64,000 bases of DNA. It comes from a virus. The translations under genes were made by a program, and so were the position numbers. This document shows, one piece after another, positions 70-60,692 of the stretch (position 1 is its first letter; the number at the start of each line of letters is the position of its first letter). The notes beneath the pieces are model-generated. The model worked only from the letters and a program-made list of their open reading frames with translations. It did no database searches and was not told the DNA's origin. The stretch is from positions 96,001 through 160,000 of IMG/VR virus record IMGVR_UViG_3300042402_001861, one strand, 5' to 3'.

Positions 70-768
70 ATGAAGAGCCTGTTGGAACATCTTTTGCAGG
101 AGGATGACTGCGCCAAGATTTTTGGAAATGTGCTTTTTGGAAATCCTCCCGGCGAAGAGCGAGACAGCACCAAGGAAAGAGACATTAGAAAGGCAGTCAT
201 GTCCTTCTTCGGTGATAACTTGACCTACAAGCAGAAGCCCGAAACGGTGGTCAGAGCATTCCGTGAATTATTGAAATGCAAGGGCAAGTTCCCCGACGAA
301 CTTCAACCCAATGTCAGCCTGCTGTATCGGGGCATCCGCCTGAAAGAAAGTGAAATTGTGAAAATCAAGGATTGGAAGTTTGCCGACGATACAAAGCAGG
401 AATTGGTCGGCACCGGGACATACAAGTCCAAGTATCCGATTCAGTCATGGTCGGCAAGCAAGATCCGTGCAGAGTTCTTCTCAATCGACTTCCCCGAATG
501 GCGAAGACAGAAGATGCTGCCTGCAATCGTCATGGCGGTTCCTGACAAGTCCGAAATGCTCTTCAACACCAAGTTCGTCATGGAACTGAAGAAGAGCGCA
601 AGAGGAACGCAGAAGTACTACATGGAGCAGGAGATCGTCCGTGTCAGCGAGAAGAAGATCAACTGCAAGTTCTTCCTACCCACCCAATATGTCAGGATGG
701 TCGATGGCCTGTCACGAAAGACAATCGATCACCTCGTCAGCACGGCAGGTTTCCGCCCGACAGCCTAA
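70..768 (+). CDS. putative ADP-ribosyltransferase-fold protein (Alt/Mod-like)
   Basis: R-S-E-like motifs LYRGI, IQSWS, EQEIVRV; paralogous to 15656..16618; start at MKSLLEHLLQE. Confidence 0.55.
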   Translation: MKSLLEHLLQEDDCAKIFGNVLFGNPPGEERDSTKERDIRKAVMSFFGDNLTYKQKPETVVRAFRELLKCKGKFPDELQPNVSLLYRGIRLKESEIVKIKDWKFADDTKQELVGTGTYKSKYPIQSWSASKIRAEFFSIDFPEWRRQKMLPAIVMAVPDKSEMLFNTKFVMELKKSARGTQKYYMEQEIVRVSEKKINCKFFLPTQYVRMVDGLSRKTIDHLVSTAGFRPTA

Positions 769-1004
769 AGAATGTTCTTGGCCTTGAGCCGCTGCACGAT
801 CTGATCGAACTCTGTATTCTTGCCGTCGATCAGCAACTGAGCCGCATCGGCAAGGGCAAGAAGTTCCCTCAAGGATTCCACGGTCTGGTTCACGAAGGGG
901 TATGTCACCTCCATGAATATCTTGTTCCTCTCCGATTTCTTCTGCATCGCTGCGGCACTCTCAAGGCGATCAGCAAGTTCTCGGGCGGTGTGGTGGTGTC
1001 TCAT
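765..1004 (-). CDS. hypothetical protein
   Basis: ORF with GGAGG RBS before MRHH; TAAATA at 1044-1049 on the minus strand. Confidence 0.6.
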   Translation of the reverse strand: MRHHHTARELADRLESAAAMQKKSERNKIFMEVTYPFVNQTVESLRELLALADAAQLLIDGKNTEFDQIVQRLKAKNIL

Positions 1005-1055
1005 GGAACCTCCTTGGGTAAGACATGGCAAAGAGAACAAATGTATTTAACACGA

Positions 1056-1127
1056 AGCCATCTGCGGGAATCGAACCCGCGATCTGCTCATTACAAGTGA
1101 GCCGCATTACCACTCTGCTAAGATGGC
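1056..1127 (-). tRNA. tRNA-Thr(UGU)
   Basis: GCCATCT/AGATGGC acceptor stem, GCTCA-CTTGTAA-TGAGC anticodon arm, GTTCGATTC T-loop; CCA not encoded. Confidence 0.93.
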
Positions 1128-1132
1128 GTGAA

Positions 1133-1214
1133 TGGGAGCGGAAGGATTCGAACCTTCGTAGCCAATGGCAGCAGATTTACAGTCTGCCCTCGTTGTCCGC
1201 TTGAGTACACTCCC
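1133..1214 (-). tRNA. tRNA-Tyr(GUA)
   Basis: GGGAGTG/CGCTCCC acceptor, GCAGA-CTGTAAA-TCTGC anticodon arm, long variable arm, GGTTCGAATCC. Confidence 0.93.
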
Positions 1215-1219
1215 TGAAT

Positions 1220-4829: not shown

Positions 4830-6215
4830 TCATTCCTCGTTGACGGGCTTTCGCGGATCAAATGGCTTCTTGCCCATCATCAGGCCGCTGTATATGTTGT
4901 TGTAGACATTCTGCATCTTGGTGCCATCGGTTCGCTTCATGTTGGCGATTGCCTTGTTGAATTCCTGAACGGTAGGAACCTTGCCCTGCGCCATTCGGGA
5001 ATTGTACTCGCTGATGATGTTTCTGACATCCTGCAAGAGCGAAACGGTTCGCGACAGGAACTTCTCCCTGCGCTTGGGTTCCTCAAGGAAGAACTTTGCC
5101 GTGCTGTATGCCTGCCACGAAACGAATATGAGGCAGAAGTTGCCCACCGCACCCATGTTGTACTTGTCGAGCCCGAACTTGGTCGCATGTTCCCTTGCCC
5201 AAGGCTCCGCGATTGCATCGGACATCTTCCGATACAGTTCCGCGACCACCACCTCGGCAACCTCCTTGCACCTTGCGGTGGGAGTCATGGTGTTGAAGTT
5301 TGAATTTGCGGCCAATGCCTTTGCGGCAGAGCGTTCATTGGTGGCAGCGATCAGGAACGACTGCACGGCATTCTCAACGATCTCAGCCGCACTCTGAAAG
5401 TATGCATTCCACTCCGCATCGCTTGTGTAGTAGTCCTTCTTGAAGACATCCTTGCTGTCATATGACGCATCGATTCCACGCTTGATGTTGCCGGGATGGC
5501 TTGACTTGGACTTGTACCGAAAGTCATCGAACAGGTGGATGAATTCGTGGATGTAGATGTCAGCCGTGTTGGACAATTCGGCCTCGAATTGGTCAAGCCA
5601 CTTGTTCAGGGGCCGTGCAAGTGCCTGAGCCGACTTTCCCTCAATCTTGCCACGAAGAGTCTGTATGATGGCATGGTGGAAGGGCTTGTCGGGCTTGAAC
5701 TGCAATGTCTCCATGTGGTGAATCTGAACCTCGGGATTGTTTCGTCCCATCTTTCCCGAATGGTAGGTTCCCTTGGCATTGCCGCTGCTGAACATGGACC
5801 GACCCGTGGTGCTTCGAAGCGTTGTCTGCAACAGGACGATGTTTCCCTTGTCAACCAACTGACGATACTGCTTCATCGTGATGTAGGAAGGCAGCACCAT
5901 CTGCGACTCGTCCCTGATGCACATGGCGATCACCACATCCCATCCGTTCTTTGTGGCAAGGACAAAGTGCGAGGAAGGCTGGTTCAGCGTGAAGGCATGG
6001 ATCAGGTTGTTGGCAATGGTATGGTCGCTGTCCATGGTGTAGTGGAAGACTCTGTTCTCTGCCATGTCCTTGACGAAGGCGGCGACCTGCCTGCGGAGTA
6101 TGACCATCAGGTTCTTCTTGAATCTTTCAAATGACTTCCTTGCCGCATCCCGTGTCGGGCGGTCAAGTTCACGCTCAAGCAGCAGGGCTTCCATCATCTC
6201 TTCGAAAGTCTTCAT
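4830..6215 (-). CDS. putative zinc metalloprotease (gluzincin), candidate internal head protein
   Basis: IHEFIH plus downstream YYTSDAEWNAY; N-terminus MKTFEEMMEALLLE. Confidence 0.6.
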   Translation of the reverse strand: MKTFEEMMEALLLERELDRPTRDAARKSFERFKKNLMVILRRQVAAFVKDMAENRVFHYTMDSDHTIANNLIHAFTLNQPSSHFVLATKNGWDVVIAMCIRDESQMVLPSYITMKQYRQLVDKGNIVLLQTTLRSTTGRSMFSSGNAKGTYHSGKMGRNNPEVQIHHMETLQFKPDKPFHHAIIQTLRGKIEGKSAQALARPLNKWLDQFEAELSNTADIYIHEFIHLFDDFRYKSKSSHPGNIKRGIDASYDSKDVFKKDYYTSDAEWNAYFQSAAEIVENAVQSFLIAATNERSAAKALAANSNFNTMTPTARCKEVAEVVVAELYRKMSDAIAEPWAREHATKFGLDKYNMGAVGNFCLIFVSWQAYSTAKFFLEEPKRREKFLSRTVSLLQDVRNIISEYNSRMAQGKVPTVQEFNKAIANMKRTDGTKMQNVYNNIYSGLMMGKKPFDPRKPVNEE

Positions 6216-6454
6216 CGCTTGCCCTTTTGCCCTATTCCGTACTTTCTGAAAATCTCGTCCCGCTTGGCCTGAAGTTCTCTCTGCCGTGGAGAACCCGCCA
6301 TGGCACGAAAGATCAACTTGGTCAGTCGATTGGCTTCCCGACGATCCTCGGGGGACATGACAGCCCAAGGATCCTTGAAACCCTTGAATGAATGGGAAGA
6401 GGAAGCCGACGAAGCCGACGAAGCCTCAAGGATGTGCTGCCGAAAACTCTGCAT
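6212..6454 (-). CDS. small candidate internal head protein
   Basis: MQSFRQHILE N-terminus; late promoter 6463-6468. Confidence 0.6.
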   Translation of the reverse strand: MQSFRQHILEASSASSASSSHSFKGFKDPWAVMSPEDRREANRLTKLIFRAMAGSPRQRELQAKRDEIFRKYGIGQKGKR

Positions 6455-6465
6455 GGCGAGGGTAT

Positions 6466-7179
6466 TTAGAAACCCATGGTCCGCAGCCCGTAGGCAGCGA
6501 CCATCTCGCCTGCAACCAAGTCGGAAGGAAAGTGGACTCCAAGGATCATTCGGCTGTCTGCGATCTTCCGTGCCATTGATTCAAATTCTGCCTTATGCTC
6601 AGGATGGAACTTGGAGAGCATCCCTGCCACGAAATGAGAATCGGCAGCATGGCCAGACGGATACGATGCGGTGTCGATGTTGCCGATGAGGCTCGAAAGC
6701 GTTCGGTTCATGTACGGGGCTATCTCGTAGGGACGAGGACGGCAGTACTTGATCTTGAGATGGTTGGTCAGCCCGTCAAGCCTTGAGGCATGGTCACGAA
6801 GCCAGCCGTAGCCATAGCCCTTGCCGGTGAGTCGGAAAGCCTCACGATCAAACCATTCATAGACTTCAAGAATGTCATCCATCTTTCTTGAAAATTCAAT
6901 CTCTTCGTGAGTGGCATCTGCCTGACGCTGAATCACGATGTCAAGTTCGATGCGAGTCTCGTTGGAGGAGTTTCGTGGAGGATCGGGAATGTGGCAGGGT
7001 TCATTGGAATTCAAATGATGCCACAGGGCCGTCGATGAATCCTTGGCCTGCCGCTTGACCTTGCTGACATACTTTGCAATGTCCCCGTCATGGCGAAGGG
7101 AGTCAAGGAAAGAGATGTGCGAAAGGTGAGGCAGGCTCATGGAATTATGTATCGGAAGGCGGTAACTGACTTGCCCCAT
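6466..7179 (-). CDS. PAP2/vanadium-haloperoxidase-family acid phosphatase
   Basis: KIKYCRPRP, SYPSGHA, SRMILGVHFPSD are the three PAP2 motifs; start uncertain. Confidence 0.85.
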   Translation of the reverse strand: MGQVSYRLPIHNSMSLPHLSHISFLDSLRHDGDIAKYVSKVKRQAKDSSTALWHHLNSNEPCHIPDPPRNSSNETRIELDIVIQRQADATHEEIEFSRKMDDILEVYEWFDREAFRLTGKGYGYGWLRDHASRLDGLTNHLKIKYCRPRPYEIAPYMNRTLSSLIGNIDTASYPSGHAADSHFVAGMLSKFHPEHKAEFESMARKIADSRMILGVHFPSDLVAGEMVAAYGLRTMGF

Positions 7180-7552: not shown

Positions 7553-7807
7553 TCAGATTTCGCCCTGCACTACAGCGCCGATGAAGGCACGAAACTTTTT
7601 CTCGTCGGCTCCGTTGGCAGTCACGAATCGCTGAAACACTTTGCCACTCTCCAAGTCAACCCATCCACAGTTGAAAGTGTACGCAGGATTCCCATAGAAA
7701 TCCTTGGTGTTGTAATGCTTGAGTATCTGTAGGAAGACATGCGGAGGAATCTCCACGAATTCCTGAGTCCACAAATCCTGAGCGATGAAGACGGTGCTTT
7801 CGTTCAT
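7553..7807 (-). CDS. hypothetical protein
   Basis: ORF preceded by TAAATA at 7814-7819 (minus). Confidence 0.6.
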   Translation of the reverse strand: MNESTVFIAQDLWTQEFVEIPPHVFLQILKHYNTKDFYGNPAYTFNCGWVDLESGKVFQRFVTANGADEKKFRAFIGAVVQGEI

Positions 7808-7874
7808 TGGATGTATTTATGACAACCCCCCTATGGTGAGGGGGGTGGCTGTGAGAGGGGGGGGGTGGTATGCC

Positions 7875-42750: not shown

Positions 42751-42760
42751 AATCTAGATC

Positions 42761-45713: not shown

Positions 45714-46653
45714 GAATGCCGCGATCATCTATATGTCACGAAAGCGTGACTTGCCCCTGCTTTACCGCAGTCTCAGTTTGCTTTGCTACAACTTCAAGCA
45801 AGCACGGGAATATCCGATCATCGTGTTCCATGATGACATAACCAAGACTGATGTTGCCAACCTGACGGTTCAGTTGCATCGTCAACTTGGCTACATTCCG
45901 AGCATTCGCTTTGAACTTCTTTCTTTCGAAATGCCTTCTTGGGTATCTGCCGATGAAAGCAAGTACATCGTGCCATTGAGCGAGGCTTGGATGGGTTACC
46001 GACACATGTGTCGCTTCCATTCGGGAGGAATCTATCGGGATGAGAGATTGCTCAAGTATGATTGGTATTGGAGGCTTGATTCCGATTCCTACATCTACTC
46101 CCCCATTTCTTACGATCCATTTGAGCGAATGAAGAATGAAGGCTATGAATATGCCTACATGAGTGAGGAAGATGGAGAGGTTCCTAGCGTTGCACAGGGT
46201 CTATGGGAAGAAACCGAGAACTTCCTGAAGACAAACAACATCGAAATGAGCGAGTATTTCAAGAGTTGCTTGGTGGATGGAAAGTGGAACTATCGGCTCT
46301 TCTACACGAACTTTGAGATTGCAAAGTTCTCTTTCTTCCGAGGCAAGGAGTACATGGATTACTTCGATCATCTTGACCGGACAGGAAACATTTATTATCG
46401 ACGGTGGGGGGATGCACCCATCCATTGGTTGGGTGTAAAGATGTTCCTTGATCCCAAGAAGACATGGGCGGTCAAGGACATAGCATATCACCACAACGCA
46501 TGGGTAAGGAATTTGAGTGCCATACCCAACAAGCAAGTCCCTGAAAAAATCTGGCAAATCTTGCAGGGAGATGACTACAGGATGAACCGTTTGTCGCAAG
46601 GGATGGCTAAATACATTTCGGGCGGCAATGATGGCCTGAATTGGGGTGAATGA
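45706..46653 (+). CDS. GT15 (Kre2/Mnt1-like) alpha-mannosyltransferase
   Basis: YRHMCRFHSG, YDWYWRLDSD, YTNFEI, YRRWGDAPIH. Confidence 0.85.
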   Translation: MAENAAIIYMSRKRDLPLLYRSLSLLCYNFKQAREYPIIVFHDDITKTDVANLTVQLHRQLGYIPSIRFELLSFEMPSWVSADESKYIVPLSEAWMGYRHMCRFHSGGIYRDERLLKYDWYWRLDSDSYIYSPISYDPFERMKNEGYEYAYMSEEDGEVPSVAQGLWEETENFLKTNNIEMSEYFKSCLVDGKWNYRLFYTNFEIAKFSFFRGKEYMDYFDHLDRTGNIYYRRWGDAPIHWLGVKMFLDPKKTWAVKDIAYHHNAWVRNLSAIPNKQVPEKIWQILQGDDYRMNRLSQGMAKYISGGNDGLNWGE

Positions 46654-47264
46654 TGTATTCGCAAGCATTTCAAGATGAATTCGTAGACATTCTTCTGTCT
46701 CGTCCCACCAAGGGGTTCTTTGTGGATGTCGGTGCTGGATATGACCAAGCCATCGACATAAACAGCAATTCTTTGATGTTTGAGGAAAGAGGGTGGGAAG
46801 GTATAGCCATAGATGGAAGCATGGAGCGAATGTTGGGTAGAAAGTGCAAATGTGTTTCTTGCTTCATCGGGGATGGGTCAGAAGGAACAGTCCTTCTTTC
46901 CGATGTTCTCTCTGCAAATGGATGCCCAACTGTGGTTGACTATCTGTCCGTGGATATAGAAGGAAATGACTACAAGGCCATTGAGTCTTTTGTTGGTGGT
47001 GGTTATGAATTCAAGATCGCAACCATAGAACACAATTTATATTCTCGTAATGCTGGAGTGGATGAACTCAAGAGAGATGTGTTTGACCTCTTGACTCGCA
47101 ACGGTTACATAAGAATCGTTGACAATGTGGGTCACATGGCGATTTCCTCGGATCTACACAGAGGATGGCCGTTCGAAGACTGGTACATCAATCCGAAATA
47201 TGTGAAGTATAAAGAGACAATGAACACAATAAAGACCATGAAGGAAAATGGAGAAGCAAGATGA
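46650..47264 (+). CDS. FkbM-family methyltransferase
   Basis: FVDVGAG..SNS, LSVDIEG, ATIEHN, EDWY. Confidence 0.75.
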   Translation: MMYSQAFQDEFVDILLSRPTKGFFVDVGAGYDQAIDINSNSLMFEERGWEGIAIDGSMERMLGRKCKCVSCFIGDGSEGTVLLSDVLSANGCPTVVDYLSVDIEGNDYKAIESFVGGGYEFKIATIEHNLYSRNAGVDELKRDVFDLLTRNGYIRIVDNVGHMAISSDLHRGWPFEDWYINPKYVKYKETMNTIKTMKENGEAR

Positions 47265-48169
47265 AACTCGACAAAGTGGTGTTTGGATGCTCCGAGACAT
47301 TTAGCCCGTGGTGGAACATTCAGTCCCGTGTATGGAAGACCAAGTTCAATGTTGAACCGGTATGCCTGTTGTTTGGTGACAAGAACAAGTGTGGCATGTC
47401 TGAGAAATATGGGCAAGTAGTGGAGATGCAGTTTGACAAAGACTTGCCGGACATCATTCAGATACAGTTCTGCAAATTTTACTATCCAAAGACCGAGCCA
47501 GACAAGACATGGATCATTGGTGACATTGATCAGATACCTTTGCAGACCGAGTACTTCTTGGAAGACCTTCCTAGCATTCCCGACGATGCCTATGCTCACC
47601 TGAACTATACTCTTACTGCACAGATGCGTCCCGATGCTCGAACGGATGGATTCCCCGGAATCCCCGCCGATACCTTTATGAAGTTGGGATCGTATGCAAA
47701 TGGTGGCTTTGATCTTCCCGGACATTACCATGTTGCAAAGGGTCATCTTTATGAAAAGTTGTTCTTCAACGGTCGTTCCTTCAAGGAAGTTGTTCAATAT
47801 GTGATTGAAGCACAGAGGCATGGGATGATAAAGGAGGATGCCAGAAAGACCCTCAATCAGAACATTCATGGTATGTACTGGATTGCTGAGGAAGGCTATA
47901 CCTCCGAACAGATATGGTATGGATTGAAGTCCAAGAAGATCAGCGGCTTCTACGGCAAGGAATACCACATTTGGAATCAGAAGATCGACAGAGTAGGAAG
48001 ACTGTTTGATGCTCAGGGAAGATTTACACCTCAATGGACAGGTAGCAACTATCTGTATGATGAGAACAAATTGAGGAACAAGGGATACATGGATTTGCAT
48101 TGCCATCGGCCTTATCACGAACAGGAAAGGCCCATGATGCGTATTCTTGAAATCGCTGAGATGATCTGA
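47261..48169 (+). CDS. putative glycosyltransferase
   Basis: IIGDIDQIP DxD motif, DLHCHRP; operon context. Confidence 0.55.
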   Translation: MKLDKVVFGCSETFSPWWNIQSRVWKTKFNVEPVCLLFGDKNKCGMSEKYGQVVEMQFDKDLPDIIQIQFCKFYYPKTEPDKTWIIGDIDQIPLQTEYFLEDLPSIPDDAYAHLNYTLTAQMRPDARTDGFPGIPADTFMKLGSYANGGFDLPGHYHVAKGHLYEKLFFNGRSFKEVVQYVIEAQRHGMIKEDARKTLNQNIHGMYWIAEEGYTSEQIWYGLKSKKISGFYGKEYHIWNQKIDRVGRLFDAQGRFTPQWTGSNYLYDENKLRNKGYMDLHCHRPYHEQERPMMRILEIAEMI

Positions 48170-49575
48170 TGGCATTCATCTGCATATCCGGCAGTTCGGG
48201 TGTGGGAAAGACCACGATATCGACTTTGATGCAGTCGGTATTGGGTGCGGAGAATTGCACCACTCTGAGCGGAGATGATCTACACAGATGGGAAAGAACA
48301 AGTCCCGTGTGGAAGATCAAAACTCACTTGGATCCAGAAGAGAACGACTTGGAGCGAGGCTATGCTGACATACGGGCTCTCATGGACGGCAAAACCATCG
48401 AACGGAGAAAGTACAACCACGACACGGGAATATGGGATTCTCCAATTTTGGTTCAACCAAGGGAACATGTTCTGTACGAAGGGCTTCATGCCCTGTACCA
48501 CATTCCGACCTATAGCCTTGCTGACCTGACGATCTTTGTTGATACGGATGATACGCTGAAGACCGAGTGGAAGGTGAAGCGAGATACGAAGAAGAGGGGC
48601 TACACGGAAAGCCAAGTTCTTGAAACGATGAAGAGGCGAAAGAAGGACGAGGAATTGTACATCACGCCGCAGAAAGAGAGAGCGGATGTGGTGGTGAAGT
48701 TCACGAAGGGAAGGGACGGATCGATATCGCTAGAGTACATCTCTGTGAACGGCAAGGGAATTGCATTGATGGACAGGATGAAGGAATTCTACGATTCTCT
48801 TCGGGATTACATGAATCTCTGCAAGTGGATATCGCTTGATCCTTCCTTAGTACAGGGACCGGGAGGAAATGTTTCCGTGAAGTCAAAGAGCGGAATCATT
48901 ATCAAGTCATCAGGTGCGAGAATGTCCGATGTAAATCTACATCACGGATTCAGTCTTTGTGACATAGATGGGGACTTTCCTGAATTTCAGTCGGAGGAGG
49001 AATACACGGAGTTCGTTCATCGTTCACGGAAAATGGGCAGCAGGCCATCTATGGAAACAGGATTCCATGTAGTGTTGCCCGAGCGAGTGGTAGTACATAC
49101 GCATCCTATCCATCTCAATGCCATCCTTTGCAGCAAGGAGGCTAGGGGAACCATCAGGGACATCTTCCACGATCTTTCATACGATTTCATTGAATACACA
49201 AGACCCGGCATGATGCTCACCAACAGGTTGATAGAAGACATGCCAGCGAACATCATATTTCTAGAGAACCACGGACTGATCGTGTGTTCCGAAAGCCCGC
49301 AGGAGGCATTGGAGACAACCGAAAGAATAAACAACCGATGCAAGAGATGGCTTGCTAATCATGTTGAGTCTTTCGTTGATCTTGAAGATTGCAAGCAAGA
49401 ATCTCTGCCACTTTTCCCCGATGCTGCCGTCTTGCCTGATGAAATGCGCTCAACCAACAACTACATACTTGGTCTGCTGAATGCAGCCTGTCTATCTCCG
49501 AATTACCTTTCGGAGGAAGAGGCAACGGCACTCAACTCAATGATTTCAGAAAAGTATAGGAAGGCTATAGCATGA
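48169..49575 (+). CDS. phosphoribulokinase/uridine-kinase-like domain fused to class II aldolase domain
   Basis: GSSGVGKTT, GDDLH, YEGLH; GPGGNVS, RPSMETGFH, VHTHP, LENHG. Confidence 0.85.
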   Translation: MAFICISGSSGVGKTTISTLMQSVLGAENCTTLSGDDLHRWERTSPVWKIKTHLDPEENDLERGYADIRALMDGKTIERRKYNHDTGIWDSPILVQPREHVLYEGLHALYHIPTYSLADLTIFVDTDDTLKTEWKVKRDTKKRGYTESQVLETMKRRKKDEELYITPQKERADVVVKFTKGRDGSISLEYISVNGKGIALMDRMKEFYDSLRDYMNLCKWISLDPSLVQGPGGNVSVKSKSGIIIKSSGARMSDVNLHHGFSLCDIDGDFPEFQSEEEYTEFVHRSRKMGSRPSMETGFHVVLPERVVVHTHPIHLNAILCSKEARGTIRDIFHDLSYDFIEYTRPGMMLTNRLIEDMPANIIFLENHGLIVCSESPQEALETTERINNRCKRWLANHVESFVDLEDCKQESLPLFPDAAVLPDEMRSTNNYILGLLNAACLSPNYLSEEEATALNSMISEKYRKAIA

Positions 49576-50408
49576 AGATTGTGATTCCGATGGCAGGGAC
49601 GGGGAATCGGTTCGTGGAAAAGGGTTATGCCGATCCCAAGCCGCTCATTCGTGTGAACGGCAAGCGCATTATCGATTACATTCTTGATATGTTCGACACG
49701 GAAAACGATGAGTTCGTCTTCATCTGTAATGATGTTCACTTGGCAACGACCAACATGGAGAAAATCCTTCGGGCAATCGTCAAGAATGCAACCATCATTT
49801 CGATGCCGCAGCACAAGTTGGGCCCGGTCTACACGGTTCAGGCTGCTTACGATCACATCAAGGATGACGAGGAAGTCATCATCTCGTACTGCGATAACCC
49901 ACATCTGTGGGATCGCAAGGACTTCGAAACCAAGATGCATGAGGGAGGATATGCCGGTTGCGTACTCACGCACACGGGATTCCATCCACACACCCTTGCT
50001 CACACGAAGATGGCTTTCGTCAAGGGAAGCAACAATATCCTTGAGGAGATCAAGGAGAAGGCTTGCTACACGGACAATCCGATGGATGAACATGCATCCA
50101 CGGGAGTCTATTACTTCAGCAAGGGTGCCTATATCAAGAAGTATTTTGACCAAGCAGTAGCCGAGAAGATACAGTACAACGGCGAGTTCTATGTTACGCT
50201 TGTCTACAATCTTCTCGTTCGTGATGGATTGAAGGTTGGATACTACGATACACCCTATGTCACGGTGTTTGGGACTCCAGAGGAAGTAGAGAATTTTGAG
50301 GCTTGGGCCACGATTCTCAAGGGAACGCAAGTGAAGAATGTCATCGATCTTGTGGCCTGCTATCAATATTGGAAGAAGTACCATGAGGAGGAAGCAACAG
50401 TACTATGA
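49572..50408 (+). CDS. sugar/polyol nucleotidyltransferase
   Basis: VIPMAGTGNRF..GY..PKPLI, YCD, GEFYV, FGTPEE. Confidence 0.85.
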   Translation: MKIVIPMAGTGNRFVEKGYADPKPLIRVNGKRIIDYILDMFDTENDEFVFICNDVHLATTNMEKILRAIVKNATIISMPQHKLGPVYTVQAAYDHIKDDEEVIISYCDNPHLWDRKDFETKMHEGGYAGCVLTHTGFHPHTLAHTKMAFVKGSNNILEEIKEKACYTDNPMDEHASTGVYYFSKGAYIKKYFDQAVAEKIQYNGEFYVTLVYNLLVRDGLKVGYYDTPYVTVFGTPEEVENFEAWATILKGTQVKNVIDLVACYQYWKKYHEEEATVL

Positions 50409-50875
50409 TCTACATTTCACACAGAGGAAATCTCAACGGCATCAAGCCTGAACTTGAGAATGCCCCAACCTACATCGATGAGTGCATCCATCGTGGCTTT
50501 GACTGTGAGATAGACCTACGGATGCGGGATGGTATGCCTCACTTGGGGCACGACACACCCGACTTTGTTGTTTCTGCCTCTTGGCTGAACAATCGAAAGG
50601 ACAGGCTATGGATTCATGTCAAGGAATACGAGGCTTTGGTGTGGCTGATGGAGAATTGCCCTGATTGTAAGTTTTTCTGCCACGAAAGTGATCGATACAC
50701 ATTGATAAGCAATGGATGGATATGGTCGCATGATTTGACAAATAAAATGACAGAGAAGTGCGTGGTTCCATTGCTTTCAAAAGAATCGATAGAGGCGTAT
50801 TCTCAAGAACCAACATTCGGTGCAGTCTGTTCGGATTTTGTGTTTGATTGCATGGAGAAGTTCGATCTGGACTGA
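50405..50875 (+). CDS. GDPD/PLC-like phosphodiesterase
   Basis: ISHRGN, DCEIDL, LGHD, WIHVK, VCSDF. Confidence 0.75.
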   Translation: MIYISHRGNLNGIKPELENAPTYIDECIHRGFDCEIDLRMRDGMPHLGHDTPDFVVSASWLNNRKDRLWIHVKEYEALVWLMENCPDCKFFCHESDRYTLISNGWIWSHDLTNKMTEKCVVPLLSKESIEAYSQEPTFGAVCSDFVFDCMEKFDLD

Positions 50876-52883: not shown

Positions 52884-52957
52884 GGGGCGAGGGGGTCTTT
52901 GGTTGGCCCAGGAGAGTTTATACCTCTCTGGCGCAGGTTCGAATCCTGATCGCCCTA
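52884..52957 (+). tRNA. tRNA-Ile(UAU)
   Basis: GGGGCGA/TCGCCCT; GAGAG-TTTATAC-CTCTC; CAGG-TTCGAAT-CCTG; atypical D-arm. Confidence 0.75.
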
Positions 52958-52992
52958 CTTGACGGATAAATACCACCACAAAGGAGATTGCC

Positions 52993-53457: not shown

Positions 53458-53488
53458 AATCAGGATGGGGGAAAGGATAAATATGACC

Positions 53489-54736
53489 ATGATAAGGACT
53501 TTCTCAAGCCTGATCGAAGAGCGGCAACCCGTCATGGAGGCGGTGCAGTCGCAGCATCTTGATCACCTTGAGGACTTGATCTTTTTGGATGGAGGGGTAA
53601 AGAAAGCCACCGAAATCCTTAAGAATCTGGTGAAGTCCTTGGCTTCAGCCACCCCTACGGCAAAGATGGTCATCACCACGAAGTGGGATGGGGCACCGGC
53701 AATAGTGGCAGGAATCCACCCGGCAACTAAGAAGTTCTTCGTGGCACTCAAGGGAGCAACCCTTTCTGCCAATCCCAAGATTTGCTATACACAGGCAGAC
53801 ATCAACCGGGAGTATGGAGACAAGGCGGAACTTGCATCCAAACTTTCAGTTTGCCTGAAGAACCTTCCCTCCGTGTTGCCTGCAAAGGGAATCTATCATG
53901 GGGACTTGCTCTTCACAGACAACAAGAAGATCGCCACAATTGACGGTACATCTATGGTGACTTTCCGACCAAACACGATCATGTATGCCGTTCCTGCTGA
54001 CAGCCCAATGGGAGTGAAGATAAAGGCTGCAAAGATGGGAATCGTATTCCATACGCAGTACACGGGCACGGGCAAGGAACTCAAGGATCTGTCCAAGTCT
54101 CCCCTTTCCTCGCTGCAAGGGTTCAAGCAGACAACTGCCGTATGGTTCACGGGTGCCACTTTGCCGTCCCCGCCATCAGGATCAACCTTCCTCACGGCAA
54201 GCAACGCCAAGCAGATAGTTGACCTTATTGGATTGATTGCGGCATCGGCAACCCAAGTCAACTCATTTCTCAAGATTGTGAAGAAGTCCCACGAAAAGGA
54301 CATCTACGCAGAACTGATGCCCTTCATCAATTCGGGGGTTCGGGCAGGAATTTCAAAATACGATTCCGCCAAGTTGAAGGTGTTCATCGAAGGTAAATAC
54401 AATGCAGCAATCGCGAAGTTGAAGACACAGACAAAGATAGCAGAGAAACAAAACGACAAGAAGAAGGCAATTGCCTTCATCGATGCATACGCAGGGCAGT
54501 TTGATCAGTTGTTCAAGGTTCACTCGTTGGTGTCGGAAGCAAAGATGGTGGTAATCAGCAAGTTGTCTGAAGTAAAGACGATAGGAACATACTTGCCAAC
54601 CGCATCCGGCTTGAAGGCAACCAATCCCGAAGGATTCGTTGCCGTGTGTGGAAAGACTTGTTCAACCATCAAGTTGATAGACAGATTGGTGTTCGCAAAC
54701 GCAAACATGAACATAACCAAGGATTGGAAGAAATGA
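53489..54736 (+). CDS. conserved T4-like protein with ligase-type KxDG motif (DUF6267-like)
   Basis: HLDHLED, TTKWDGAPA, PEGFV, KLIDR; MIRTFSSLIEE. Confidence 0.7.
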   Translation: MIRTFSSLIEERQPVMEAVQSQHLDHLEDLIFLDGGVKKATEILKNLVKSLASATPTAKMVITTKWDGAPAIVAGIHPATKKFFVALKGATLSANPKICYTQADINREYGDKAELASKLSVCLKNLPSVLPAKGIYHGDLLFTDNKKIATIDGTSMVTFRPNTIMYAVPADSPMGVKIKAAKMGIVFHTQYTGTGKELKDLSKSPLSSLQGFKQTTAVWFTGATLPSPPSGSTFLTASNAKQIVDLIGLIAASATQVNSFLKIVKKSHEKDIYAELMPFINSGVRAGISKYDSAKLKVFIEGKYNAAIAKLKTQTKIAEKQNDKKKAIAFIDAYAGQFDQLFKVHSLVSEAKMVVISKLSEVKTIGTYLPTASGLKATNPEGFVAVCGKTCSTIKLIDRLVFANANMNITKDWKK

Positions 54737-57700
54737 AAACCTTCTCGGAAGCAACAAAGAACTTCAAGCCAAAGGGCAAGTCCGTAGTAGTGGCTGTTGG
54801 GAGGTTCAATCCCCCCACCACAGGGCATGAACTTCTTCTCAAGAAGGTCAAGGAAGTGCAGTCTGCAAAGGGTGCCGATGCTCATGTCATCTACTACAGT
54901 TATTCCAACGATCCTAAGAAGAATCCCCTGACTGCGGCGCAGAAAGCCAAGTATCTCAAGCAATTCTTCCCCGGCTACAAGTTCAAGCAGATGCCCAAGC
55001 CTTCGGCAAAGGGTTCGGGTGTATATGCCTGTATGCAGGAGTTGAGCGACCAAGGCTACACACAGGTTTATGTTGTGACCGGTGCCGATCACATGACGGA
55101 ATACCAACTTGTCAAGAAGTACATCAAGAAGACCCCGACACAGAAGGACGGGTACAACTTCAGCAAGTACGAGATAATCAGCGCAGGAGAGCGTGATCCC
55201 GATTCTGAGGGAGTGGTCGGCATGTCTGCAAGCAAGATGCGTAAGGCCGCATTCGATAAGGACATCAAGACCTTCATGACGGGCATTCCTTCAGGAGTTT
55301 CCAAGACGGTAGCAAAGCAGATGTACAATGATGTCCGCAAGGGAATGAGCCTAAAGGAAGAGGTGATCGTAGAGGAAACCAAGACACCCGTGACGATCAT
55401 CGCTCTCACTTCAAGCATGGAAGAGAGCGAGAAAAGCACAATCGGAAAGATGGAGGAAGCCTGCAAGAAGTACAAGGTGAACTTCCATCCGATCCGCATC
55501 AAGACCGCCACCATCAACATCGCCAAGGCAAGTCCCGACAAGATCACCATAGAGAACTTCGATGGCGAAGGAAATGATGTCACCATCATCCCGAACCAGA
55601 CCCTGTGCGTTGTCCGTGGTGGCACGATGAACAGCGAAGTCGGCATTGCCCTCCTCATGTTGTTGCAGAACAACGGCGTATTCATGGTGAACGAACGAGG
55701 CGGCATGGATCTGTGTGCAAACAAGTTGCAGACTGCCATCACGCTAAAGCGACACAACATTCCTCACCCAAAGACTGCATTCGTCGCAGATGCTGAATCC
55801 ATTCCCGATGCCCTGAAGCAGATCGGAGGGAAGTTCCCCGTCATCGTCAAAACCCTGACGGGAGCGGAGGGAATTGGCGTATCGATCATCGAAAGCGAAA
55901 AGTCACTTGTGTCCGTGCTGCAAAGCCTGTGGAAGTACGGTGCCGAGATCATTCTTCAGGAATTCATTCCCGGCTTCACCCATGATGTCCGAAGCATCTG
56001 TCTCAACGGCAAGATTTTCGCATCTGCCAAGCGAGACAAGGCCAAGGGAGACTTCAGAACGAATATTGCCCGTGGTTCAAAGGGCGGTTCATTCGAACTA
56101 TCTGAGGACGAGATCAAGTTGGTGGAAACCGTGGCGAGGGTTTCCAAGTGCTACTATGTCGGAGTCGATCATGTGGTCGCTGGTGGAAAGCCTTACATCA
56201 TAGAGATGAATGCGAGCCCCGGAAGCGGAAATGTCTACACTCTGTATGAGGACGGAAAGCCGACAAAGGATGTTGATGGCGATGAACTTGTCGAAGAACT
56301 CGTCAAGCACCTGTCCAACAAGCAGAATTGGAAGTTGTTCAGTTCCGTCGCGGTGGTCGAACCAATAAAGGTCGCAGGCGAGGAATTCTACGGCAAGGTG
56401 GATACGGGCAACAGCGGTTACAACTCAATCCATGCCACGGACATTAAGATCAACGAGAAGAACCACACAGTCACCTTCAAGTTCAATGGCGAGAAGGAGA
56501 TGACCAAGCCCATACAGAGCCGTATTCGTCTTCGCCATGGTTCTTCCAAGGAAGAGGCAGTCCGTCCGACTGTCCTGTTTGATGTTGAATTTAATGGCAG
56601 GGAATTCAAGAATGTCAAGTTCAGTCTTGCCGACAGAAGCCACATGAACTACAAGGTTCTTCTTGGTCTTCGTTTCCTCGTTCAGGCCGGTGTCATGGTC
56701 GATCCCAAGGACATGTCGGCTTCGAAGACGAAGATCGATGAGGAGAAACTTGCCATGCAAGGCAAGGAAATGAAGAGTCACCTTGACGGTCTGATTTCAA
56801 AGATCAGGGAAAAGCATGGAAGCACAAATGTGACCTATTCGCAGGCTATGAAGATCGTAGGTGCGACAGGTGCTGCTCGTCTTGCTGCCCGTGGAATGAT
56901 TAAGCGTGACAGCGGCAAGAAGGAAAAGGGAGAACTTGGCAAGGAATCCGTGGAGGAATCCAAGTACACAACCAAGACCGGAAAGGCCGTGTCTCCTGCA
57001 AGAGACACGAAGGCCGACTTGCCGAAGAAGTATGTCGCTGGCCTGAGCAAGACGCAGAAGGCAAAGCGAAAGGCACAATTTGACAAGCGCAAGGACATTC
57101 CCGACAGCGATCCCCGTGCATGGAAGAAGTTGCCGGGTGATCCAAAGGAAACCAAGAGAAAGTCCAAGTACACTCAATTGTTTGCCAAGAAGTTTGGGAA
57201 GAAGGTTGAAGAGGCAATCGATCAATTGATGAAGATCGATTCACTCTCCATCCCCATGTCGGAAAAGGTCGAACGAGTCAGGGAATACCAATCCAAGTTG
57301 CAGACGAAGGAAGAAAGAGACATCTGCACGGTCTTTATTGAAGTCGTCAAGAACGAGATGTACGAACCATATTCCAACATCAAGACAACCTTGGACGAGG
57401 ATTTCGAGTGGATGATGTACAACAGTACGGATTCAGAGTCCACGGCAAGAATCATTAAGAAGAAGTTGCAGGAAGTTCTTGAAATCGGAACCAACGAAAT
57501 CGTCAAGGCGTATTCCAAGATGACTCCGGGGCAGAAGTACTACACCGAGGACAAGGCCAAGGAAGAGCAGGATGCCCTTTACAAGGAATGGGAAAAGTTG
57601 GTCAACATGGGTCCAAAGGAGTTGGAGTCCTTCATCGATTCAGATGAGGGCGAAGAAGCAGGACTTTCCCGCAAGGAGGCTTCCAAAGCAGGAGCCAAGG

Positions 57701-57918
57701 GCGGAAAGATCAAGTCCGGACGAGACTCGGCCCGTGCCATTGTACGCATGTTGCAGACCAAGAAGAAGGATTGGACACCCAACGATTGGGAATGGGCACG
57801 AAGACAGGTCAATTTCATCACACGCATGAAGGGAGCCCAAGGACCGATGCGTGACGAAAAGGGTCGCCCAACAAGGAAACTTCTGGCTCTGAAGATTTGG
57901 GGCCACAACCCGGAATAA
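54733..57918 (+). CDS. multidomain protein: HIGH-family cytidyltransferase-like, RimK ATP-grasp, RimK-associated aspartyl protease, small C-terminal domains
   Basis: GRFNPPTTGH, SASKMR; NKLQT, IVKTLTG..G.GV, LQEFI, DVRS, FRTN, IEMNASPG; KVDTG, RP.V, VLLG; WGHNP. Confidence 0.85.
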   Translation: MKTFSEATKNFKPKGKSVVVAVGRFNPPTTGHELLLKKVKEVQSAKGADAHVIYYSYSNDPKKNPLTAAQKAKYLKQFFPGYKFKQMPKPSAKGSGVYACMQELSDQGYTQVYVVTGADHMTEYQLVKKYIKKTPTQKDGYNFSKYEIISAGERDPDSEGVVGMSASKMRKAAFDKDIKTFMTGIPSGVSKTVAKQMYNDVRKGMSLKEEVIVEETKTPVTIIALTSSMEESEKSTIGKMEEACKKYKVNFHPIRIKTATINIAKASPDKITIENFDGEGNDVTIIPNQTLCVVRGGTMNSEVGIALLMLLQNNGVFMVNERGGMDLCANKLQTAITLKRHNIPHPKTAFVADAESIPDALKQIGGKFPVIVKTLTGAEGIGVSIIESEKSLVSVLQSLWKYGAEIILQEFIPGFTHDVRSICLNGKIFASAKRDKAKGDFRTNIARGSKGGSFELSEDEIKLVETVARVSKCYYVGVDHVVAGGKPYIIEMNASPGSGNVYTLYEDGKPTKDVDGDELVEELVKHLSNKQNWKLFSSVAVVEPIKVAGEEFYGKVDTGNSGYNSIHATDIKINEKNHTVTFKFNGEKEMTKPIQSRIRLRHGSSKEEAVRPTVLFDVEFNGREFKNVKFSLADRSHMNYKVLLGLRFLVQAGVMVDPKDMSASKTKIDEEKLAMQGKEMKSHLDGLISKIREKHGSTNVTYSQAMKIVGATGAARLAARGMIKRDSGKKEKGELGKESVEESKYTTKTGKAVSPARDTKADLPKKYVAGLSKTQKAKRKAQFDKRKDIPDSDPRAWKKLPGDPKETKRKSKYTQLFAKKFGKKVEEAIDQLMKIDSLSIPMSEKVERVREYQSKLQTKEERDICTVFIEVVKNEMYEPYSNIKTTLDEDFEWMMYNSTDSESTARIIKKKLQEVLEIGTNEIVKAYSKMTPGQKYYTEDKAKEEQDALYKEWEKLVNMGPKELESFIDSDEGEEAGLSRKEASKAGAKGGKIKSGRDSARAIVRMLQTKKKDWTPNDWEWARRQVNFITRMKGAQGPMRDEKGRPTRKLLALKIWGHNPE

Positions 57919-57923
57919 TTCAA

Positions 57924-58190
57924 ATGCAAAGATTCAAAAACTACATCTCCGAAGACAAGCCAGCCGCACATACATCCTTGGAGAAGAAGTCCAAGGCTTC
58001 AGGCATCCCTTACCGCTTCCTCAAGCAAGTCTATGACCGTGGAGTGGTCGCATGGAAGGGAGGCCATAGGCCGGGGGCTGGCCCCGAGCAATGGGGTCTG
58101 GCAAGAGTCAACAGTTTCATCGTCGGCGGCAAGACTCGTCATACCGCCGATGCAGACATTTGGAAAAAGTACAAGGGCAGCAAGCGTTAA
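57924..58190 (+). CDS. small conserved protein (DUF5824-like)
   Basis: LKQVYDRG..AW..GHRPG..QWG.ARVNSF; MQRFKNYISE. Confidence 0.75.
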   Translation: MQRFKNYISEDKPAAHTSLEKKSKASGIPYRFLKQVYDRGVVAWKGGHRPGAGPEQWGLARVNSFIVGGKTRHTADADIWKKYKGSKR

Positions 58191-58234
58191 ATTTCGCTAA
58201 ATACCCAAGCATCAACTTCACCTAGAGGTAAACA

Positions 58235-59152
58235 ATGCACAGTAACAAAATCTCTGCCAATTTGCAAAATGACATTCTGAAGGTTCTTCGTGGCGAAACT
58301 ATTTCGAAGACCGAACTCCCGACCGCCATCATGGAGGCCGCAAAGCAGGCTTCCATCGATCTGGGTCATGCCTTCCTTGACGAGGGCTATCTGTCGGCAG
58401 AACGCCGCCGCGACATCCTTCGCCGCAACCTCGCAGAGGGGTTGAAGAAGTGCGGATGCACTCCGACCACGGAAATGATCAACCGCTACGAGGAAGAGGC
58501 TTCCAAGCCCGTTCAGGTTGATGCTAAGAAGGAAGTTGCCGAGGAAACCAAGAAGGAAGAAGTCGTTGATGAGGCAGTAGTGACCGAAACCGAAGAAGAA
58601 ACTCTTACCGAAAGCAAGGCTAAGGTCACACAAACAAAAGATGGCCGTTATTTCTTCGAATATCCAGGAATGAGTGCAACAACACGGGCTGGACTTATGC
58701 TCTGGGTAAGAGAGGTGTTTGGAACAAACGACAAAACCTACACCTCGGCTAATACTAAGAAAGCATATGACACACTTGCCAAACATGCAGATGGAATCAA
58801 TGCATGGATGAAAAAGAACAATTTCGGATCATTTGCCAACGGTACGCACCCTAACTATAAGCACCTTATTGGTTATTATCTGAAGAACCTAAAGGGTGTA
58901 AATATTAAGGGCAAGTACGATGTTAAGAATGATCTCGGAGCCGGTAAGACTTTAAAGAAGGAAGAAGTCGTTGATGAGGCTGCATCCGACATGATGCTTC
59001 GCTCTTGGATTCGCAACAATTATCCAAGCGCCGACAACACCAAGTTCAACAAGATCCTCGCAGCAATGCAGAAGCAGTACAACAAAGACCCCAAGGGCTA
59101 TACCTACGGTGGCGGCTTCAGCAAGGTTGCAAAGGACGCAGGGATCAAGTAA
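58235..59152 (+). CDS. late modular protein with duplicated KKEEVVDEA linkers
   Basis: late promoter 58198-58203; 26-bp direct repeat. Confidence 0.75.
   Translation: MHSNKISANLQNDILKVLRGETISKTELPTAIMEAAKQASIDLGHAFLDEGYLSAERRRDILRRNLAEGLKKCGCTPTTEMINRYEEEASKPVQVDAKKEVAEETKKEEVVDEAVVTETEEETLTESKAKVTQTKDGRYFFEYPGMSATTRAGLMLWVREVFGTNDKTYTSANTKKAYDTLAKHADGINAWMKKNNFGSFANGTHPNYKHLIGYYLKNLKGVNIKGKYDVKNDLGAGKTLKKEEVVDEAASDMMLRSWIRNNYPSADNTKFNKILAAMQKQYNKDPKGYTYGGGFSKVAKDAGIK
58550..58980 (+). repeat. 26-bp exact direct repeat flanking an AT-richer segment
   Basis: AAGAAGGAAGAAGTCGTTGATGAGGC at 58550-58575 and 58955-58980. Confidence 0.9.
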
Positions 59153-59200
59153 TCCCTTTCCGAGAGACTAAATAACAGAGCCCCCAAAGGAGAACCATAG

Positions 59201-60082
59201 ATGCCACTCTGGAAGAACAACAATCGCGAAGAGTCGAAGCCGTCATGGCTGAACAAGATCGAGAAGAGACTTTGCGTCCGCACCGTCCGTGGTTGGGAGA
59301 AGCCCCTTGATGGGTCTTTCTTCAGCCAAGGAACCACCGCAACCAACTCGGTTCCTGTTCAGATGGAACTCCTTGTCACCATGCCTTATGATCCTTCGAT
59401 CACGGGTGGCGTAAACAGCGCATATGCCTACAGAACAGTAGGCGGGCTCTCCTCGGACAGCCGTGGCATCACTTCGTCCACCGAAGTGCAGTATTCTCCC
59501 TACTTCTCGACTCCTTTCGATGGAGACAGCGCCACCGCAGGCGGTCCTGCTGGTGTTGGAGTCACCCACGACAACATCACCTATGTTGTTCCCAATGGTG
59601 CAACTCGCGGTGCTGGAGTCGGCTACCAGTATGGCGTGAATGCCTATGGCGTGTCCACCCTCGGTGGCCTGACCGGCGTTACCGCTTACATCAAGATTGT
59701 TGCCAACGATACCAACCTGACACAGAACCTAACTATCGGTCTGTCGGGAACCTACAACGGAATGGCTCTCTACACCGGCATCGGACTGACTGTCGGCAAT
59801 GCCGCTCCTGCCATTCCAGAGGTTGTGTACAACGCCTTCTTCGGTGCAACCGGAGATGATCCGGGGATCAAGCAGTATCGTCAAGACAACATCGCTGTTC
59901 TTGTTGTCGGTGGCCAGACTGCTGCCGGTACAAAGGTTGTTGATCTAATCGTTCGCGACAACTCGGGTGTCACCTTCGGCACCATCAACGGTCTGACGGG
60001 AGCAACCGGCTTTGCCGAATTCACGCTGTCGTTCGACCGTAATGCCGCCGATGCCAAGTGGATCACTTCGTACTCGAAGTAA
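59201..60082 (+). CDS. probable virion structural protein (Gly/Thr-rich)
   Basis: late promoter 59169-59174, AAAGGAG RBS, MPLW start. Confidence 0.7.
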   Translation: MPLWKNNNREESKPSWLNKIEKRLCVRTVRGWEKPLDGSFFSQGTTATNSVPVQMELLVTMPYDPSITGGVNSAYAYRTVGGLSSDSRGITSSTEVQYSPYFSTPFDGDSATAGGPAGVGVTHDNITYVVPNGATRGAGVGYQYGVNAYGVSTLGGLTGVTAYIKIVANDTNLTQNLTIGLSGTYNGMALYTGIGLTVGNAAPAIPEVVYNAFFGATGDDPGIKQYRQDNIAVLVVGGQTAAGTKVVDLIVRDNSGVTFGTINGLTGATGFAEFTLSFDRNAADAKWITSYSK

Positions 60083-60095
60083 GTAAGGAGTCAAG

Positions 60096-60692
60096 ATGCG
60101 TTTCAAGGACTTGCGTAAGAAGATTGAGGAAGCAATGCTTCCTACCGACTACTACGGTGGGTATGTTGTCGGCACAAAGGTTGGACCCTTGGACTCTCAG
60201 GACAATGCAGTTGATGCTCCCGAGGCCAGCGTCCACAAACTCACGCATCAGGAATTGAAGAGACTCAACACCTTCCTTGGTGCTTCAGAGGACAAGGCTT
60301 ACATTGATGTGAATGTAGCCATCAACAACATGAAGCAGAAGTTGCAGACACAGGGCATTTCGTTTGACTTCAAGCCCGATGATGTGATGGAAGACGGCGA
60401 TCACATCTTCCCGCTGAAGCAGTTCGGCGGACGCTACGGAATGGACGGGACATCCTACAATCCAATCAACGACGATGGCATCACCCATCGTCTTGGTCAC
60501 GGATTGAACCTGATGATCACCACCATGCGTCAGTCAAACGGCCTCACCAACATGTGTGCCAAGATTTGTCCTGCCAATGAAATGCCAACCTCTCCCGAGA
60601 TGAAGCCCAAGAATGCACCCATGAACATGTCGGCAAGCACGGTAATGGCAAACAAGAATCCATTCACCAACCCGACATTCTCCAAGCAATAA
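60096..60692 (+). CDS. candidate internal head protein
   Basis: MRFKDLRKKIEE; AAGGAG RBS. Confidence 0.7.
   Translation: MRFKDLRKKIEEAMLPTDYYGGYVVGTKVGPLDSQDNAVDAPEASVHKLTHQELKRLNTFLGASEDKAYIDVNVAINNMKQKLQTQGISFDFKPDDVMEDGDHIFPLKQFGGRYGMDGTSYNPINDDGITHRLGHGLNLMITTMRQSNGLTNMCAKICPANEMPTSPEMKPKNAPMNMSASTVMANKNPFTNPTFSKQ

Follow-up and report, generated by a model that had tools for sequence, protein, structure and literature searches.

Putative late genes of an uncultured lake T4-like phage share N-terminal leaders resembling the T4 capsid targeting sequence

We analyzed a 64,000-nucleotide stretch of viral DNA, bases 96001-160000 of the IMG/VR virus record IMGVR_UViG_3300042402_001861 (hereafter the window), in which many otherwise dissimilar open reading frames (ORFs) begin with nearly the same short leader. 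The source record is 177,364 bp long, 98% complete and 50% G+C, and the phage is a T4-like myovirus. Genes bearing the leader (carriers) are named by W and their window coordinate, and gene counts refer to a set of 197 genes predicted over the whole genome with a self-trained codon model. A strict form of the leader was defined as M-x-x-F-x-x-[Y/F/H]-[I/V]-x-E and a loose form as M..[FYL].{2,9}[LIV].E, with F, Y or L at position 4 and [LIV]-x-E two to nine residues on. We found seven strict and about ten looser carriers; about 14-17 putative late genes carry the leader, 13-16 of these within the window. An initial inspection of the window (the original prediction) had likened these N-termini to those of T4 internal proteins and had read the genes as a packaged and injected effector arsenal. 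The carriers in the window, with lengths in amino acids (aa), distances in nucleotides (nt) and the residues that follow each leader, are:

70-768, plus strand: W70, a 232-aa basic ADP-ribosyltransferase (ART)-like protein with an isoelectric point (pI) of 9.5; leader MKSLLEHLLQE, then DD.
4830-6215, minus strand: W6215 (also W4830-6215), 461 aa, basic, with an HEFIH motif; leader MKTFEEMMEALLLE, then RE.
6212-6454, minus strand: W6454, 80 aa, very basic; strict leader MQSFRQHILE, then AS; TAAATA 8 nt upstream (6463-6468).
15656-16618, plus strand: W15656, a 320-aa ART-like paralogue of W70; long leader MRSFYDF...NLKLDE, then AS.
16612-16917, plus strand: W16612, 101 aa, basic; strict leader MVNFKSYISE, then AK.
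16914-17654, plus strand: W16914, a 246-aa basic ORFan; strict leader MKSFRGHITE, then VF.
17651-18298, plus strand: W17651, 215 aa, basic; strict leader MKSFIAFISE, then AQ.
20005-21282, minus strand: W20005-21282, 425 aa, basic; leader MKPLTLKQFIHLDE, then SS; TAAATA 6 nt upstream (21289-21294).
21321-21578, plus strand: W21321, 85 aa, basic; leader MKSFKKLKE, then E; TAAATA at 21297-21302.
22860-23174, plus strand: W22860, 104 aa, acidic, pI 4.9; starts MHYRDLKKKLEE; a doubtful member.
24101-24985, plus strand: W24101, 294 aa, basic, two-domain; strict leader MRRFRSFVSE, then GY.
53489-54736, plus strand: the DUF6267 gene, 415 aa, ligase-like (Pfam 3.9e-89); leader MIRTFSSLIEERQPVME, then AV.
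54733-57918, plus strand: W54733, a 1061-aa polyvalent protein; short N-terminal extension MKTFSE, then A; a weak member.
57924-58190, plus strand: W57924, 88 aa, the C-terminal half of DUF5824 as a separate ORF; strict leader MQRFKNYISE, then DK.
60096-60692, plus strand: W60096, 198 aa, pI 6.5; starts MRFKDLRKKIEE; a weak M43 match only; a doubtful member.

The strict leaders in the window are thus those at 6454 (minus strand), 16612, 16914, 17651, 24101 and 57924, and the seventh, MRDFHQHINE, belongs to an NT5C-like gene just upstream of the window. All 12 N-termini quoted in the original prediction are present at their coordinates (6215, 6454 and 21282 on the minus strand), and its description of the ORFs as otherwise unrelated was borne out, as BLASTP among the carriers gave one paralogous pair only, W70 and W15656. 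Beyond that first list we added W15656, W22860, the NT5C-like gene and a zeta-toxin-like P-loop kinase (MKEFQGLKDYLEE), the last two lying outside the window. Two gene starts were also corrected: the gene upstream of 16612 begins at 15656, and the DUF6267 gene is taken to start at 53489, the position favored by its late box, where the second Met of a potential MTM start lies. The least convincing members are W60096 and W22860 (MxxxDLxKKxEE type, not basic) and W54733 (MKTFSE only); of the members first listed, two or three are doubtful. A further candidate, g189 (MAKFRDFIGKE), was rejected as a paralogue of a fibre-like protein.

The strict motif stands at the start of 7/197 genes, against 0.01 expected from internal positions (binomial P~1e-17), and follows none of 1123 internal Met residues. 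Searched as a degenerate DNA pattern, it gave seven matches in the genome, all at ORF starts, and the reversed-pattern control gave one. For the loose motif the figures are 15/197 gene starts and 3.1 expected (P~7e-7), so that about 12 of these genes exceed chance and roughly three (2-4) could be chance. If the resemblance were due to chance or to a composition bias of N-termini (Met-Lys, common Glu), with no shared function behind it, about three loose matches would indeed be expected, and MK starts are common. The strict counts, the internal Met residues and the reversed control nevertheless argue against this explanation, as do independent links to high pI and to late units and the retention of the pattern by orthologues (see below). 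We consider it very improbable overall; it is effectively refuted for the strict members and possible for 2-4 of the loose ones.

It has been previously reported that the capsid targeting sequence (CTS) of the T4 internal proteins (IPs) IPII and IPIII is MKTYQEFIAE (PMC8442874). Mapping of the CTS by amber suppression assigned residues 4 and 7 to targeting and residues 8 and 10 to processing; the prohead protease gp21 cuts after L/I-x-E, removes IP propeptides of 10-19 residues and also processes Alt (PMC9026906), a protein that is packaged and injected (PMC5512222). Diverse IPs having only a CTS in common are known for T-even coliphages (PMC3012670; PMC9026906). In T4, D10 in place of E10 blocks processing. 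The invariant positions of the leader described here, F4, [Y/F/H]7, [I/V]8 and E10, are the four positions functionally mapped in T4. Position 4 is F (rarely Y) and position 7 is Y, F or H in the seven leaders of this genome, in six leaders of relatives and in 30 distinct leaders of the DUF6267 family; I/V at 8 and E at 10 occur in every strict member, and the longer leaders end in L-x-E or V-x-E. As a positive control, the strict DNA pattern, the form used for the T4 calibration, recovered ipII and ipIII from the T4 genome.

The phage also encodes the machinery on which such a leader would depend: a Peptidase_S77 prohead protease (gp21, genome positions 70633-71280; 2.5e-36), a T4-type scaffold (gp22; T4_CASP, 1.5e-74) and a gp23 capsid protein (Gp23, 3e-151). 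An N-terminal extension of the capsid protein ends YLKE, then AA, directly before the Gp23 domain, and the N-termini of gp21 (MKLFCDLNE) and gp22 (MDSFKNNEVEE) are both within the 15 loose-motif genes. Outside the window, at genome positions 81715-84189 on the minus strand, lies an 824-aa basic late polyprotein made of small modules and repeated KKEEVEV[A/S/V]E-type linkers, and these linkers fit the [LIV]-x-E protease rule. T4 internal proteins are highly basic. The same is seen here, where 15/17 carriers have a pI above 9, compared with 18% of the other proteins (Fisher P 6e-9).

We examined the transcriptional context of the carriers. The hexamer TAAATA, mostly with a C before it, occurs 63 times in the genome, and in 46 cases a gene on the same strand starts within the next 150 nt. 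Because it precedes the sheath, tube, scaffold, capsid and baseplate genes, we take TAAATA to be the late promoter box; the cyanophage late promoter, for comparison, is NATAAATA (PMC2984593). Boxes that head carriers in the window include:

59-64, plus strand: late box TAAATA, 5 nt before the W70 ATG.
15594-15599, plus strand: late box heading a four-gene leader operon.
24090-24095, plus strand: late box 5 nt before the W24101 ATG.
53478-53483, plus strand: late box 5 nt before the ATG at 53489.

Carriers were enriched behind late promoters, as had been anticipated: 16/17 lie in TAAATA-headed units, compared with 95/180 other genes (P 5e-4), and W22860 is the carrier outside any such unit. A box of its own within 60 nt is found for 8/17 carriers and for 39/180 other genes (P 0.025), with eight more carriers following in a headed unit. 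The earlier statement that most of these genes sit behind TAAATA therefore holds at the level of the headed unit and for about half of them at the level of the individual box. Judged from the promoter motif, the carriers would be expressed late, together with the head genes.

Eleven genes have (C)TAAATA 5-9 nt (mode 5) before the ATG and no Shine-Dalgarno sequence. Given this distance and the T4 spacing rule, their transcripts are predicted to begin no more than 1-3 nt from the start codon, or exactly at it, and the 11 genes would give leaderless late mRNAs. Such sites lie at window positions 59-72, 6452-6468 (minus strand), 7805-7819 (minus strand), 21280-21294 (minus strand), 24090-24103, 53478-53491 and 63989-64000, with five more elsewhere in the genome. 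The 38-bp gap at 21282-21321 separates two divergent cargo genes and contains a pair of back-to-back late boxes forming a near-palindrome (TATTTATCTAAATA). Five of the 11 leaderless-type genes are leader-bearing cargo (TAAATA 5-8 nt from the ATG), and the other six are without the leader motif.

To follow the leader beyond this genome, we compared orthologues. Those of W24101 in three related IMG/VR contigs begin M[IL]NFKTYISE, where this genome has MRRFRSFVSE, and continue with an identical GYNGDGDC. In a 49-kb related contig, G001, the W17651 orthologue (57% core identity) begins MKTYSQLILE in place of MKSFIAFISE, the W6215 orthologue begins MKTFGNWLLLE followed by RELDRP in place of MKTFEEMMEALLLE, the W15656 homologue starts MKDFKKYISE, and W6454 is homologous to the N-terminus of a protein starting MKSFLTHITE. 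Orthologues of W21321 begin MKTYKQLKEE and MKTFKELKEE, with TAAATA 5 nt upstream. Only three homologues of W16914 were found among 5.8 billion proteins, all keeping the leader as MKSFR[GS]HITE; tblastn and a scan of IMG/VR gave zero relatives of this gene. The codons for a given leader residue differ, Ser9 being AGC in three genes and TCC in two, and this, together with a pattern that is kept while the leader diverges, points to selection on the protein and not on the DNA. A nucleotide-level repeat or recombination box was rejected for the same reason, the codons differing between leaders.

The leader is portable between proteins. In the DUF6267 family, an exact decamer (for example MKSFRTYINE, MKTFGKYISE or MKVFTTFIAE) directly precedes the domain in 59/106 homologues with a locatable H-x-H-x-E-D block; the others mostly have longer variants, and a few start at the domain without a leader. 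DUF6267 is leaderless in P-HM2, S-CRM01, S-RIM8 and S-RIM44, and in Syn19 its N-terminus is longer and off-pattern. Stand-alone homologues of the W24101 N-terminal domain start at the G-D-C motif or have a decamer before it, and those of its C-terminal domain often have a decamer of their own. The leader is placed on whichever domain comes first, and the DUF6267, Cys and BECR domains each occur with and without it. Likewise, the DUF5824 C-terminal half is fused to a 'cytidylyltransferase' in other phages and is here a separate ORF with its own leader. G001 has five strict leaders, some on cargo lacking in this genome, and misses two cargo genes found here; the repertoire therefore varies as the IP loci of T-even phages do.

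These observations bear on whether the shared N-terminus might be a signal unrelated to the capsid, such as a translation-initiation or 'downstream box' feature in leaderless late mRNAs, a tag for stability or degradation, or a peptide that docks to another phage or host machine. Five carriers do lie on predicted leaderless-type late transcripts, and a T4 protein, gp61.1, has the motif without known packaging. However, the motif occurs equally on operon-internal genes with ordinary Shine-Dalgarno sequences and is missing from six leaderless-type genes; codons vary while conservation at the protein level extends over hundreds of diverged homologues, and the conserved positions are the four that were mapped in T4 for targeting and cutting. 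We therefore regard a non-capsid signal as quite unlikely.

Turning to the cargo, we found that W70 and W15656 probably represent ADP-ribosyltransferases. The W70 leader and the motifs Y86-R87-G88, S126-W-S128 and E186-Q-E188 are invariant in 12 sequences (W70 and 11 homologues), and BLASTP of W15656 against W70 (E 1e-4) aligns YRG, QSW[ST] and E-x-E. When a model of W70 with a predicted local distance difference test score (pLDDT) of 66 was compared with representative solved chains, every alignment longer than 120 residues was to an ART (Vis, Tre1-type, iota, VIP2, C2-I, HopU1, ExoS and C3), with Z 2.4-3.9. The original proposal of ART cargo is thus supported by the R, S-x-S and E-x-E motifs, and by fold matches that are exclusively to ARTs but weak.

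W24101 consists of a papain/transglutaminase-like Cys-His-Asp domain (13-156) and a putative RegB/RelE-like BECR domain (168-294). In its AlphaFold2 model (pLDDT 87.5), residues 1-10 form a low-confidence appendage outside the fold. The Cys domain matched LapG (Z 5.0), C8orf32 (Z 5.2), SpvD and SseI. For residues 168-294 the best match was T4 RegB (2hx6; Z 6.9, which is below the caution line of Z 8; root-mean-square deviation 5.4 over 116 aligned residues), followed by RelE/ParE toxins (RelE, Z 6.5-5.0), in agreement with the RegB-like cargo first proposed. Both domains recur in proteins of 500-1500 aa together with ART-PolyVal, DUF5824, DUF3140, DUF5661, GNAT and NUDIX domains. Such polyvalent proteins were predicted by Iyer et al. 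2017 to be packaged and injected (PMC5512222).

The ligase-like and RimK cargo of the original prediction lie side by side. The DUF6267 protein contains a KxDG motif (TKWDG, ligase motif I) whose lysine is K63. W54733 has cytidylyltransferase-like, RimK ATP-grasp (a Pfam match), Zn_protease, DUF5824, DUF3140 and DUF6321 domains by Pfam and PHROGs, and candidate [LIV]xE sites between its domains. The late operon 53489-58190 (DUF6267, polyvalent RimK, DUF5824) is syntenic with the cyanophage 'T4-GC 71 / cytidylyltransferase' pair; compared with that pair, each polypeptide here has an N-terminal extension and the DUF5824 C-terminal half is split off.

The remaining carriers offered fewer leads. 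Ten main carriers searched against Pfam and PHROGs matched no family, except for one C-terminal PHROG match of W24101, and PDB sequence searches with W24101, W70, W4830-6215, W20005-21282 and a W70 profile gave nothing meaningful. A Foldseek search of the W70 and W24101 models against the PDB, the step suggested for the folded cargo, returned nothing at E 0.001 or better. W4830-6215, the proposed zincin, had zero Pfam, PHROG or PDB matches and a weak ESM Atlas lead to LPD domains, and that assignment stands on the HExxH motif (HEFIH) only. For the proposed nuclease, W20005-21282, a weak ESM Atlas lead to restriction endonucleases (score 0.85-0.86) hints at a possible PD-(D/E)xK-type enzyme.

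In another possibility, distinct from an effector arsenal, the leader does target the prohead core and the proteins are assembly or scaffold accessories or DNA condensers, which would be degraded and expelled or would remain with the DNA and have no action on the host. In T4, gp21 degrades gp22, gp67 and gp68, and no role is known for IPII or IPIII (PMC9026906). In this phage, gp21 and gp22 themselves have N-termini similar to the leader, and a large share of the carriers consists of small, very basic ORFans that show no enzyme signature. On the other hand, signatures or folds of enzymes are found in several carriers (ART, RegB/BECR-like, papain-like, KxDG, RimK and NT5C), domains are common to carriers and polyvalent proteins, and the repertoire differs between close relatives, as arms-race cargo would. 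We consider a purely accessory role unlikely.

Two features of the surrounding DNA stand apart from the carriers. Six tRNA genes (Thr-TGT, Tyr-GTA, Leu-CAA, Gly-TCC, Asn-GTT and Ile-TAT) are dispersed among cargo and replication genes, at window positions 1056-1214 (minus strand), 26029-26371 and 52884-52958. A long stretch of glycosyltransferase-like and sugar-nucleotide genes occupies 40491-50875, between uvsX and gp41.

We then placed the leader family among phages. The DNA polymerase is 49% identical to cyanomyovirus polymerases, and for the major capsid protein the identity with Kyanoviridae (Pelagibacter, Methylophilales and Synechococcus myophages) is 60-63%. In a Megablast search, 14 kb of the sequence had zero matches among GenBank phages. 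The phage has no close cultured relative, and the same DNA recurs in more than 20 lake-water metagenome studies from 2016-2025. Genomes were compared with the strict DNA pattern, for which the reversed control gave 0-2 matches per genome. This phage (177 kb) has seven matches, G001 (49 kb) five, T4 three and S-SRM01 two. P-HM2, Melnitz and S-RIM8 have one plausible match each, and Syn19 has one candidate match (MSKFVLLVME). P-SSM2, S-CRM01, HTVC008M, Mosig and S-RIM44 have none. The claim of a scale larger than that of T4 is modestly supported (seven strict matches, compared with three in T4 and 0-2 in eight cultured Kyanoviridae), and the expansion belongs to the uncultured lake lineage and not to the whole family.

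Taken together, these results suggest that most strict members are targeted to the prohead core and cut by gp21, to which we assign a probability of roughly 0.7; that the cargo is ejected with the DNA and host-directed in activity is, in our judgment, an even bet or slightly better. By analogy with T4 IPI-III and Alt, F4 and the aromatic residue at 7 of an N-terminal amphipathic helix would dock each protein on the gp22 core during prohead assembly. The gp21-family protease would then cut after [I/L/V]-x-E and remove a portable propeptide of 10-25 residues, and the mature basic protein would stay in the head with the DNA. At infection the cargo would exit with the DNA and could act on the host before phage gene expression. 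It would comprise the ART-like proteins, the Cys-peptidase-like and RegB/BECR-like RNase fusion, DUF6267, the RimK polyvalent protein, DUF5824, a nucleotidase-like protein and the ORFans. The original proposal of a packaged and ejected arsenal is partly supported: what a capsid-targeting role predicts for motif, machinery, late units, charge and portability agreed with our data, and from these we infer packaging, cutting and ejection.

Several observations weigh against this interpretation. The strict DNA pattern also matched T4 gp61.1 (MKTFKEFIKE; NC_000866 18966-19130, minus strand), a 54-aa protein whose gene adjoins the primase gene, and the motif alone is no proof of packaging. To our knowledge, gp61.1 is apparently an early-region protein and is not a known T4 head protein; either it belongs to the internal proteins without having been recognised as one, or it cautions against relying on the specificity of the motif. 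The DUF6267 and cytidylyltransferase genes of cultured cyanophages carry no leaders and have no annotation as virion proteins, so that any packaging of these families would be confined to certain lineages. A 1061-aa enzyme and a deoxynucleoside monophosphate nucleotidase-like protein would be odd cargo for injection, and the fold evidence for the ARTs is weak, with Z below 4 on a model of pLDDT 66. The gp21 rule is short and common, [LIV]xE occurring at positions 8-14 in 27/197 N-termini against 13 expected, and W60096, W22860 and W54733 are possibly chance members. Finally, W31096 (MNPFEFVKSINE), a small gene rejected as a carrier for lying within the replication cluster, fits the loose pattern only; no replication gene has the strict motif.

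The arrangement resembles the T4 CTS/IP system in its propeptide of about 10 residues, whose positions 4 and 7 are aromatic and whose positions 8 and 10 are I/L and E, and in the placing of one leader on unrelated basic proteins. It also shares the gp21-family protease and gp22 scaffold, genes predicted to be late, a repertoire that varies between relatives and a probable ART among the cargo, T4 Alt (a packaged, injected ART) being paralleled by two ART-like carriers. It differs in belonging to a distant Kyanoviridae-like lineage, in having about 15 carriers compared with three IPs and Alt, and in being known here from genes alone; its cargo is larger and enzyme-rich, its leaders span 10-25 residues and many of its predicted late transcripts are of the leaderless type. 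DUF5824, DUF3140, the BECR-type RNase, the Cys-peptidase-like domain, the ARTs and a predicted delivery with the DNA are shared with polyvalent proteins, and W54733 is itself a multi-domain protein of that class (PMC5512222). In contrast to those giant polypeptides, the carriers are mostly separate small ORFs with their own leaders, and the ART-like ones have R-S-E motifs and are not of the ART-PolyVal type. The phages phiKZ, 201phi2-1 and SPN3US likewise have many head-internal proteins whose propeptides are cut off after Glu by a gp21-related prohead protease and which make up a large ejected mass, whereas their cleavage motif is S/A-x-E and their phage family and capsid size are unrelated. 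We know of no common 10-residue N-terminal tag defined in these three phages.

The CTS mechanism itself is already known in T-even coliphages. In literature searches for leaders of the CTS type, whether in Kyanoviridae-like phages, attached to DUF6267 or placed on domains of polyvalent proteins, we found no report, and a review of cyanophages (PMC2984593) does not discuss internal proteins. We tentatively propose, at somewhat less than even odds, that the T4 CTS code is conserved across the Straboviridae/Kyanoviridae-like split and that lake phages have 'unbundled' the polyvalent arsenal into at least 15 addressed cargo proteins and a protease-linked polyprotein. If true, the virion would deliver ART, RNase, peptidase, nuclease-like, ligase-like and RimK-type activities at injection, a mechanism of T-even coliphages would extend to a distant and ecologically dominant phage group, and the 'polyvalent protein' hypothesis would be tied to a concrete targeting signal. 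The candidates offered are two Alt-like ARTs, a RegB-like RNase fusion and the ligase-like DUF6267, which occurs in thousands of marine phages. The leaders would in that case also provide alternative CTS tags, portable packaging tags for phage-based protein delivery. If they work as in T4, a ten-residue motif would reveal from sequence alone which proteins uncultured aquatic T4-like phages package and inject, including anti-restriction and host-takeover proteins that are otherwise invisible without virion proteomics.

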